Shown here: in pieces, positions 39,609 through 40,379 of the stretch | Layout of the letters: each line of letters starts with the position of its first letter | Position numbering within the stretch: the first letter of the stretch is position 1 | NCBI GenBank assembly: GCA_944392205.1 | Contig: CALXVV010000012.1 | Coordinates: forward strand, 403-64,402 | Source of the DNA: an uncultured Alphaproteobacteria bacterium | Lineage (GTDB): Bacteria > Pseudomonadota > Alphaproteobacteria > RF32 > CAG-239 | Reading direction: 5' to 3' | DNA length: 64,000 nt | The notes under the pieces: model-generated | Databases searched by the model: none | What the model saw: the letters and a program-made list of their open reading frames with translations, nothing else | Told to the model about the DNA's origin: nothing | Made by a program: the position numbers and the translations under genes

Positions 39609-40379
39609 ATGTTTGATTTTCTTAATAATCCTTGGGAGACTGACGAACAAAAACGTCAAAAACTGAACAACTCTCAAACACAAACACCTTTTAACGGACA
39701 ACAAACCCCAATGACACCGAGACAAATGGTGGAACAGGCTTGGGACCAAAGTGTTGCCAAACAAGAAGCTAAAGAACAAGCTTATAAGCCGATGGAAAGC
39801 ATGTCTACTCACGATGCCGTCAAATATGCCTGGGATAAAAGCCTCGCTGAACAAGAAGCTAAAAAAAACTTAAATAAAATGCCATTTTTACGAGCTGACA
39901 AAAGAAATTCTATAGGCAACATGTGTGAAAGTTATATTCAAAATACCTCTAACATTAAATGGAATAACTCTCCTTTAGAACAAACTTTAGGTGCTATAAA
40001 GGACTATTGTCATAACTATATTGATATGCGGAATGCAAATTTACAAAGCTCTCCCCAAGAACAGAGAATAGGAAAGTCAACAGACAATTATTATCATTGC
40101 AAAGCAAACTATGAAGCTGCAAAAAGAGGCCCCTTTGGCAGTGCTACGGCAGCAATACTTGGATATGGGCGTGAAATTGCTGATGCAGCACATAATTATT
40201 TGGGAAAAGGACTCACGTGGAATGATACAAAAAAAGATTTTCAAAACGACTTAAATGTTAATCGTGTGGGCAGACAGCAGGCTGCTCAAAATATCTACAA
40301 TTCAGCACAAGAAGCATGCGCTCAGTTTAAACCAAACAAACTTAATGAGGAAGATGAATATCAAAAATGGTATCGATAG
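39609..40379 (+). CDS. Serum amyloid A (SAA)-like domain protein with a repeat-containing N-terminal region
   Basis: YIDMRNAN...[37 protein letters not shown]...DLNVNRVGR aligns by eye with vertebrate SAA: [46 protein letters not shown]...DQAANEWGR. The N-terminal region carries a tandem ~30-aa repeat ([15 protein letters not shown] / [15 protein letters not shown]). I see no signal peptide. Confidence 0.8.
   Translation: [256 protein letters not shown]

Follow-up and report, generated by a model that had tools for sequence, protein, structure and literature searches.

Layout of the locus and its serum amyloid A domain

The DNA analysed here, referred to as the window, is a stretch of 64,000 nucleotides of contig CALXVV010000012.1 from an alphaproteobacterium that is uncultured and represented by metagenome-assembled genomes (MAGs) only. 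At 39609..40379 (+) it contains an open reading frame (ORF) with an ATG start, encoding a 256-amino acid (aa) protein that combines an 87-aa N-terminal module with a C-terminal domain related to serum amyloid A (SAA). The gene lies between direct repeats, behind a promoter and a structured leader, and is followed by the gene of a 243-aa protein with multiple transmembrane (TM) segments; the features of the locus are collected in Table 1. Loci used for comparison, MAG or metagenome contigs, carry L-numbers and homologous proteins carry P-numbers.

An SAA-like domain had been proposed in a preliminary description of this gene on the basis of an alignment by eye. In profile searches the Pfam family SAA (PF00277) matched with 52.8 bits (gathering threshold 30.8; E 5.6e-14), the match extending over positions 6-93 of the 102-position profile, and phmmer against all PDB sequences returned SAA chains only (best E 2.6e-5). 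Three of the segments named in that description were reproduced: in the HMMER alignment DLNVNRVGR of the window protein stands opposite DQEANEWGR of SAA, and the YIDMRNAN segment is likewise aligned. An AlphaFold2 (AF2) model calculated from the window protein and 15 bacterial homologues had a predicted local distance difference test score (pLDDT) of 80-93 over residues ~90-256, with helices at 122-143, 158-171, 175-199 and 204-227 and a short helix at 233-236. When this model was compared with the PDB using Foldseek, the top six matches were SAA crystal structures, comprising mouse SAA3 (4q5g, 6pxz, 6py0) and human SAA1 (4ip8), with probability 1.00, target-normalised template-modelling (TM) scores of 0.79-0.83 and root-mean-square deviations of 2.5-3.0 Å; beyond these there was no significant match. 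Sequence identity to vertebrate SAA is 24-28% over the aligned region. The SAA assignment therefore survived both the profile search and the comparison with the SAA helical bundle, and the ORF encodes a genuine bacterial relative of animal SAA, by sequence as well as by predicted fold.

SAA has been placed in the SAW clade of the Lipocone superfamily, where prokaryotic SAA domains (prok-SAA) form the tips of toxins and metazoan SAA is inferred to derive from prok-SAA (Burroughs, Nicastro & Aravind, eLife 2025, PMC12419801). Bacterial homologues, which the preliminary description had treated as an unexplained rarity, thus belong to a published toxin-tip family, and since prok-SAA is the inferred ancestor, descent in that scheme runs from bacteria to animals. 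We took the criteria for residues and fold from the same paper, which gives as diagnostics a His in helix 2 (H2), a Glu in H3, an Asp in H4, the motif sNxxGR, a short fifth helix and low hydrophobicity. In this family the fifth helix packs between H2 and H4. The AF2 model and the Foldseek matches show the four-helix cone with a short fifth helix. The 15 bacterial SAA proteins show no variation at H163, K165, N167, E189, D210, D214 and N218, and almost none at G221; H163, E189, D214 and N218..R222 fall at the H2-His, H3-Glu, H4-Asp and sNxxGR positions of the Lipocone pocket, the motif position being occupied by V217-N218-R219-V220-G221-R222. The domain is low in hydrophobicity (maximum 15-residue Kyte-Doolittle mean 0.6), as in a soluble domain. 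Two further residues, C164 in H2 and C237 in the short fifth helix, are invariant in the bacterial homologues and missing from animal SAA; the two may form a disulfide that links these helices, and a disulfide-stabilised extracytoplasmic enzyme would fit such a pair without animal counterpart.

An N-terminal module shared with other C-terminal domains

Residues 1-87 (the N-module) comprise a conserved motif, a Q/T/P-rich linker and two 30-aa helical repeats (…AWDxSxAxQEAK). The preliminary description had reported a Q/K/E-rich N-terminus with a tandem repeat of ~30 aa and without signal peptide, and it was right on each count: the DNA contains a 44-nt repeat (39733-39776 and 39823-39866) at a spacing of 90 nt, equal to 30 aa, and there is no hydrophobic N-terminal segment, since no 15-residue Kyte-Doolittle mean exceeds -0.73 within the first 60 aa. 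In the AF2 model residues 1-88 are not confident (pLDDT <50), and the module is predicted to be disordered or of low confidence.

A homology search with the full protein showed that the N-module is shared, at 89-98% identity, with proteins that end in domains other than SAA. By Pfam, these C-termini are T6SS_VgrG3-like_C (PF21277), Phage_lysozyme (PF00959), Tlde1/YkuD and two unassigned types; two of the sister types fall in families named after effectors of the type VI secretion system (T6SS), PF21277 and PF10908. One of the unassigned types (P0012, P0022, P0023 and a gene of L016) aligned with the SAA profile in hhalign (probability 95.9%, E 6e-9), and as its His, Glu and D…D…N..G are in register with that profile, the P0012-type domain is a second Lipocone-like domain. 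A single N-terminus is thus joined, in close relatives, to alternative C-terminal domains of at least six interchangeable types, the SAA domain being one of them, with the junction at aa 87/88; this is the arrangement of polymorphic toxins.

The distribution of the module is limited. Its profile, searched against 1.84e9 representative proteins, found only 13 proteins carrying it, all of them clade-internal; a scan of genome contigs yielded three loci from two MAGs, and a scan of metagenome contigs a single 1-kb fragment. No relatives were detected in Pfam, in a PDB profile search, in PHROG or in PADLOC, and a Pfam match to MMR1 (E 0.98) was rejected as compositional noise. The N-module is therefore real, yet restricted to a narrow clade. 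Its most diverged forms (L016, P0008) shrink to ~35 residues (MFYEDEEEKRRQ…TPY); the core of the module is FxxxEEQKRRQ…TP[YF], with the AWD-helix repeats optional.

Exchange of cassettes at two chromosomal sites

Two hot spots on the chromosome encode proteins with this module: site A, flanked by tgt and a PhoB-type regulator, and site B, flanked by Smr and an ABC transporter. The window cassette occupies site A, and the same SAA cassette is found there in the MAG locus L008. In L010, from another MAG, the effector at site A is of the VgrG3-like_C type, and behind it a signal-peptide protein of 157 aa is encoded on the opposite strand. Between the window and L010 the flanks show 92.6% and 96% identity, and the similarity ends at nt 39870, exactly at the codon 87/88 boundary. 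Site B holds a lysozyme-type effector with a Cys-rich secreted protein in L005 and L009, and a P0006-type effector with a 292-aa membrane protein in L001. L001 additionally has an orphan copy of the 157-aa gene, 99% identical to the L010 partner and without effector. Site B of the window has no cassette: Smr is followed by a repeat copy and then by a paralogue (29144-29362) of a 72-aa gene that stands behind every cassette, and the two 72-aa genes, with 98.6% aa identity, mark one occupied and one empty site. Taken together, these loci give clear allelic and empty-site evidence for cassette exchange.

The boundaries are formed by direct repeats of ~119 nt (rep). In the left copy, located upstream of tgt, a GC hairpin precedes a T-run; a partial third copy is found on the right, and rep also bounds the cassettes in L001, L005, L009 and L010. 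The cross-strain comparison at both sites thus defines a cassette unit with the order rep, promoter-leader region, N-module, toxin domain and partner gene (both variable), rep, 72-aa gene. That the gene is accessory, bracketed by repeats and paired with a Cys-tailed membrane protein had been stated beforehand, and all three points are borne out by the 119-nt repeats, the downstream 243-aa multi-TM ORF and its co-variation with the toxin domain.

Co-variation of the partner gene with the predicted toxin domain

The array at L016 (GCA_964632165.1, CAZWCZ010000078.1, 19-3710) contains two SAA effectors in tandem, each followed by a protein with the same Cys domain as the 243-aa ORF. One of these partners is a multi-TM protein of 253 aa (E 1.9e-20 against the window 243-aa protein), the other a protein of 96 aa with a single TM segment and the Cys domain (E 3.8e-17), and the six cysteines are invariant across the window and L016 partners. 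L016 is a tight effector array in which the proteins have a short common N-terminus (MFYEDEEEKRRQ…TPYGLVRNPE), a minimal N-module form of ~35 aa; besides the two SAA types with their 6-Cys partners it encodes one effector of the second Lipocone type, paired with a TM protein, and an N-terminal fragment of 74 aa.

Behind every SAA effector examined stands a TM-anchored protein with a Cys motif, if one includes the small TM proteins behind the SAA genes of L012 and L017, whose motif (C-L/I-D/E-x-G…C) resembles it by eye and was not scored. Non-SAA effectors have partners unrelated to the 6-Cys protein: a 157-aa secreted protein with a signal peptide for the VgrG3C type, a 280/310-aa Cys-rich secreted protein for the lysozyme type and a 292-aa TM protein for the P0006 type. 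Partner and toxin type thus co-vary, as would be expected if the partner were a cognate immunity protein; orphan copies (L001) and arrays (L016), also found in polymorphic toxin systems, are present as well. Whatever the toxin type, the partner has a signal peptide or TM segments, which points to toxin action in the periplasm, as has been argued for Lipocone toxins (PMC12419801). According to the positive-inside rule, the Cys domain of the minimal, 96-aa partner is periplasmic. A k-mer-seeded homology search found no relatives of the 243-aa protein outside its own cluster.

A Cys-stabilised immunity domain has been described that is coupled to prok-SAA and Min-Wnt toxins (PMC12419801). It is plausible that the 6-Cys domain of the window is identical with this helix-plus-four-strand domain; the published one has 'four absolutely conserved cysteines', and the window partner six invariant ones on an anchor of ~6 TM segments.

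Promoter and leader

The promoter matches the strong promoter claimed earlier, with a near-consensus TTGACA, a 17-nt spacer and TGnTATAAA, and a perfect DnaA-box consensus abuts the -35 element. An 18-mer of the promoter is kept in L001, L003, L005, L008, L010, L011 and L015 and replaced in L009; it is unique in the window and thus gives no clue to a regulon. The leader that follows has a fold z-score of -5.1 to -5.5 in the window, and its three-hairpin layout is kept with different stem sequences in the diverged cassettes of L011 (1044-1196, z -7.6) and L015 (~1205-1345, z -6.4). It matched no Rfam family at the gathering threshold, and the permissive setting gave sub-threshold noise. With two tandem terminators between promoter and start codon, expression is implied to need read-through or antitermination; the mechanism may be antitermination or a small RNA.

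Table 1. Features of the SAA cassette and its surroundings in the window
Feature	Position	Strand	Basis or remark
Left ~119-nt direct repeat (rep)	39289..39407	.	Repeat search; 87% identical to 41332-41450
Promoter-like region	39456..39496	+	Read from sequence
TTATCCACA, perfect DnaA-box consensus	39456-39464	+	Abuts -35
-35 element TTGACA	39468-39473	+	Sequence
-10 region TGnTATAAA, 17-nt spacer from -35	-10 at 39491-39496	+	Sequence
Structured 5' leader (~105 nt)	39501..39608	+	Fold and terminator scan
Leader hairpin H1	39501-39526	+	
Terminator-like stem T1 with U-run	39527-39552	+	Terminator scan
Terminator-like stem T2 with U-run	39569-39585	+	Terminator scan
Ribosome-binding site AAGGA	39596-39600	+	
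N-terminal module of putative effector, aa 1-87	39609..39869	+	89-98% identity in proteins with other C-termini
Predicted toxin domain (SAA-fold Lipocone, prok-SAA type), aa ~90-256	39876..40379	+	Pfam, phmmer, AF2, Foldseek, residues
Pfam SAA match inside this domain, aa 125-240	39981-40328	+	Pfam
Putative cognate immunity protein, 243 aa	40441..41172	+	~6 TM segments and C-terminal 6-Cys domain
6-Cys domain, aa 196-239 (C196, C202, C211, C218, C225, C239)	41026-41157	+	Sequence
Right boundary: partial rep copies (~41176-41243) and full rep (41332-41450)	41176..41450	.	Repeat search, locus comparison
Terminator-like hairpin before 72-aa gene	41623-41646		
Conserved 72-aa gene, behind every cassette	41679..41897	+	Present after cassettes in L001, L008, L009, L010
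Second cassette site (site B), empty here: rep, then 72-aa gene paralogue	28806..29362	+	Locus comparison

Proposed function of the cassette

Interchangeable domains on one N-module, of which the assignable ones attack the cell envelope, each with an exported or membrane partner, make up a polymorphic toxin-immunity architecture, and we consider it likely that the locus is a prok-SAA effector-immunity cassette of such a system. The sister cassettes encode muramidases and an L,D-transpeptidase-like domain. The most economical assumption is that all members of the family act on the cell wall from its periplasmic side. By analogy with other Lipocone members, the SAA domain probably acts by destroying lipid-linked cell-wall precursors. 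TelC, a toxin of the same superfamily, cleaves lipid II (Whitney 2017, as cited in PMC12419801), and Llp1/VanZ and Escherichia coli YfiM are Ca-dependent pyrophosphatases of lipid-linked oligosaccharides with essential K/H/E/D residues; overexpression of YfiM leads to osmotic lysis.

In the mechanism that we propose, residues 1-87 would serve as a clade-specific trafficking or targeting module and residues ~90-256 as a soluble enzyme domain of the SAA-fold Lipocone type. Once in the periplasm of a competitor, the helical cone would hold the lipid tail of lipid II or a related undecaprenyl-pyrophosphate (Und-PP) intermediate, and the pocket formed by His163, Glu189, Asp214 and Asn218 would cut at the phosphate-linked head group, so that wall precursors run out and the cell lyses. 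The 243-aa protein would present its disulfide-rich domain of ~45 aa on the periplasmic face of the inner membrane and block the toxin, keeping the producer and its kin safe. Toxin and immunity segments are swapped between strains by recombination, with the left flank (rep, promoter, leader and N-module) and the right flank (rep and 72-aa gene) constant, and the tandem terminators of the leader probably gate expression.

Several observations weigh against this proposal. The lipid substrate is extrapolated from distant members of the superfamily. Genes for secretion, adaptors or receptors were found at none of the loci examined within ~10 kb, and the N-module is unlike anything known, so that an identified delivery route, which is a defining element of polymorphic toxins, is missing. 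The two-sequence model of the immunity protein was uninformative (pLDDT 46). In the comparison of close pairs (window versus L008), differences are too sparse to reveal selection, with 3 synonymous and 6 nonsynonymous changes in the toxin and 6 of each in the immunity gene, and those in the N-module are likewise too few. Finally, SAA relatives in phage genomes allow a reading without any toxin.

That last reading would make the SAA proteins envelope-breaching enzymes derived from a phage or gene transfer agent, i.e. virion-associated or lysis-accessory modules whose membrane proteins regulate lysis. It draws on SAA-only proteins directly behind a Hydrolase_2 endolysin-like gene in two phage-like contigs, on one SAA protein inside an IMG/VR structural block and on a MuF-lysozyme fusion in the window whose N-terminus is common to other SAA proteins; the strong promoter followed by tandem terminators also resembles the antitermination control of phage late genes. 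Near the chromosomal cassettes, however, no phage structural genes were found at any locus. Toxin and partner vary by strain at fixed housekeeping sites and an orphan partner exists, which are hallmarks of toxin-immunity systems, and even in the phage locus L017 the SAA gene has a small TM protein behind it, whose CLDTG motif recalls the immunity domain (by eye, unscored). We therefore regard a phage or gene transfer agent origin of the function as unlikely.

Much less credence is due to a host-directed mimic, acquired from or imitating animal SAA and acting on the host by lipoprotein or retinol binding or by immune modulation, along the lines of the eukaryote-like or horizontally exchanged protein that the preliminary description had envisaged. 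Fold and sequence do resemble mouse SAA3, including the retinol-bound 6py0, and human SAA1, and the sample names suggest that the sources resemble gut metagenomes. But the protein has no signal peptide, and its format, 256 aa with an 87-aa module, is different from that of metazoan SAA, which is secreted by means of a signal peptide and stands alone at ~104 aa. The domain is interchangeable with peptidoglycan hydrolases and other envelope-attacking domains on the same module, each with its exported or membrane partner, its own being membrane-anchored. Bacterial SAA domains are diverse, occur with at least three different N-terminal modules and in phages, and keep catalytic-type residues together with a Cys pair that is missing from animal SAA; moreover, bacterial toxins are the source of metazoan SAA in the published analysis (PMC12419801). 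A housekeeping enzyme that, like YfiM or VanZ, recycles lipid carriers in the producer's own envelope is the most improbable alternative: superfamily and conserved pocket residues are those of the characterised pyrophosphatases, but the protein is soluble and lacks signal peptide and TM segments, the gene is absent or replaced at the same site in sister strains, and it is fused to a module common to muramidases and has a dedicated membrane partner.

Possible delivery routes

For an effector-immunity cassette, the question is how the protein would reach the periplasm of a competitor, and three routes are kept open. The first is a contact-dependent injector such as T6SS, suggested by the two sister domains in families named after T6SS effectors; T6SS markers (VgrG, Hcp, PAAR or adaptor genes; MIX, FIX, RIX or PAAR N-termini) were found near none of the loci, the window scan for secretion machinery returned housekeeping genes only, the retrieved flanks of the loci contained no secretion genes, and the N-module matched no known trafficking domain in Pfam, PHROG, PADLOC or the PDB. 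The second is loading into a phage-like particle; no particle genes were found near any cassette. The third is a diffusible bacteriocin similar to colicin M or pesticin, with which protein size and N-terminal disorder would agree, as would domains that act exclusively in the periplasm and partners located there.

Colicin M and pesticin are proteins of ~250-350 aa without signal peptide, in which a short disordered import N-terminus is followed by a helical middle part and a killing domain that acts in the periplasm. Colicin M is a lipid II phosphatase and pesticin a muramidase similar to T4 lysozyme; an adjacent gene encodes a periplasmic immunity protein, and domains are swapped on a constant N-terminus. 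The window protein is compatible with this in size and architecture, given its disordered N-terminus (pLDDT <50), the envelope as target of all assignable killing domains, and exported partners. No sequence or fold similarity to these bacteriocins was found, nor a TonB box or receptor, and the cassettes are chromosomal, at housekeeping sites, and not on a plasmid. It is possible, if doubtful, that the N-module represents a hitherto undescribed way in which small toxins of gut alphaproteobacteria that act in the periplasm are delivered or imported, either a minimal colicin-like uptake module or a signal for an unrecognised export or particle-loading pathway, and that the double-terminator leader is opened by a trans-acting antiterminator, for which the 72-aa protein is one candidate.

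Comparison with known systems

The prok-SAA toxin-immunity type was already known in 2025; new are the N-module, the double-terminator leader, the 72-aa companion gene and the phage-borne SAA relatives. Like the published prok-SAA proteins, the window protein has a soluble four-helix cone with a short fifth helix and the H2-His, H3-Glu, H4-Asp and sNxxGR residues, at the C-terminal tip of what would be a polymorphic toxin with a membrane-anchored partner (PMC12419801). Unlike them, its N-module lies outside the delivery hallmarks listed there, namely type IV secretion (T4SS) VirD4-binding, PAAR, WXG/LXG, type IX secretion (T9SS), MuF, cystatin-like, broken hairpin and zincin-vWD. TelC-TipC of Streptococcus intermedius is similar in that a Lipocone toxin active only outside the cytoplasm is encoded next to a membrane- or periplasm-facing immunity protein. 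TelC, however, is an LXG substrate of type VII secretion (T7SS) in a Gram-positive organism and belongs to another Lipocone clade, whereas the window protein has no LXG, a Gram-negative host and a putative substrate. With vertebrate SAA1 and SAA3 it shares the Pfam family, the fold and the most conserved motifs, DMR.AN, Y.H...NY.AAKRGP and NxxGR, but vertebrate SAA is an apolipoprotein that lacks the Cys pair, the N-module and an immunity partner.

In animals, SAA is a major protein of the acute-phase response, and there is still debate over its primary biochemical function. According to the Lipocone proposal (2025), it arose from bacterial toxins that cleave lipid head groups and may still be an enzyme. 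The locus offers a compact natural test bed for this idea, with a small SAA-fold putative toxin whose predicted catalytic residues are intact, a six-Cys putative immunity domain and, as allelic controls, muramidases on the same N-module. A demonstration of toxicity, immunity and substrate here would directly test the proposal, and should the SAA domain cleave lipid II or Und-PP precursors, the ancestral, enzymatic role that has been suggested for animal SAA would become accessible to experiment for the first time. Together with the leader and its two terminators and with the 72-aa gene, the N-module, narrow in its distribution, forms a cassette-exchange system, the delivery of which is a tractable question in gut interbacterial competition.

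Neighbouring genes

The 72-aa gene is under purifying selection, with differences at the three codon positions of 12/5/76; it has no relatives outside the clade and no Pfam or PHROG match. Downstream, at 41993-42436 (+), a 147-aa predicted lipoprotein (lipobox LSSGC) adjoins site A in all strains. It gave no Pfam, PHROG or PADLOC match and is constant whatever the cassette, so that a role as immunity gene is improbable. The interval that separates it from the 72-aa gene (41897-41993 in the window) contains an extra 1.9-2.4 kb in the sister strains (L008 8727-10603, L010 5778-8154), encoding a small protein of the Cys4 zinc-ribbon-like kind, another of 251-265 aa and, in L010, a third of 196 aa; this segment is a further indel hot spot, which the window lacks. 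Elsewhere in the window, the large ORFs 6671-10147 (-), 61697-63346 (-) and 57008-58189 (+), of 1157-1158, 548-549 and 393 aa, had no Pfam match at E 1e-5.

Phage-borne SAA relatives and a probable second locus, of MuF type

SAA domains occur in at least three other N-terminal contexts. On the phage-like contigs L014 (10001-10507) and L017 (3643-4152), a Hydrolase_2 endolysin-like gene lies downstream of tail-fibre genes, and the gene of an SAA-only protein comes immediately behind it. In the IMG/VR contig L019 (3483-4163), a 226-aa SAA protein lies in the structural-gene block, after a small TM/Cys protein, and a separate holin-lysozyme cassette is present elsewhere on this contig. These contexts suggest that the SAA fold takes part in phage entry or lysis. 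Phage-borne SAA is not discussed in the text of the Lipocone paper (PMC12419801), and tblastn of a phage SAA protein against INPHARED gave no match.

The window itself encodes, at 48417-49448 (+), a 343-aa protein with a Phage_Mu_F motif at aa 80-135. Its residues 28-93 match the N-termini of the SAA proteins P0015-P0019 (E down to 1e-14; 42-48% identity to P0018/P0019), and its C-terminal 165 aa, a GH24-type lysozyme, match the lysozyme toxin of the N-module family (P0004/P0026, E ~2e-9). N-modules and toxin domains are thus shuffled combinatorially. The Phage_Mu_F domain reportedly acts as the N-terminal module of MuF-type polymorphic toxins. To this type the 256-aa protein is related through the shared lysozyme domain of the two families and the N-terminal segment common to P0015-P0019 and the MuF-lysozyme protein, but it has no MuF similarity of its own. 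The MuF gene faces a convergent segment at 49445-51265 (-), which encodes three lipoproteins of 131, 131 and 133 aa, paralogues with 82-94% identity, and a 157-aa secreted protein. A match between 50366-50839 and the 157-aa partner of L010 was not significant (E 0.04) and was rejected. The segment 48417-51265 is probably a second toxin locus, of MuF type and with an immunity array, among housekeeping genes.

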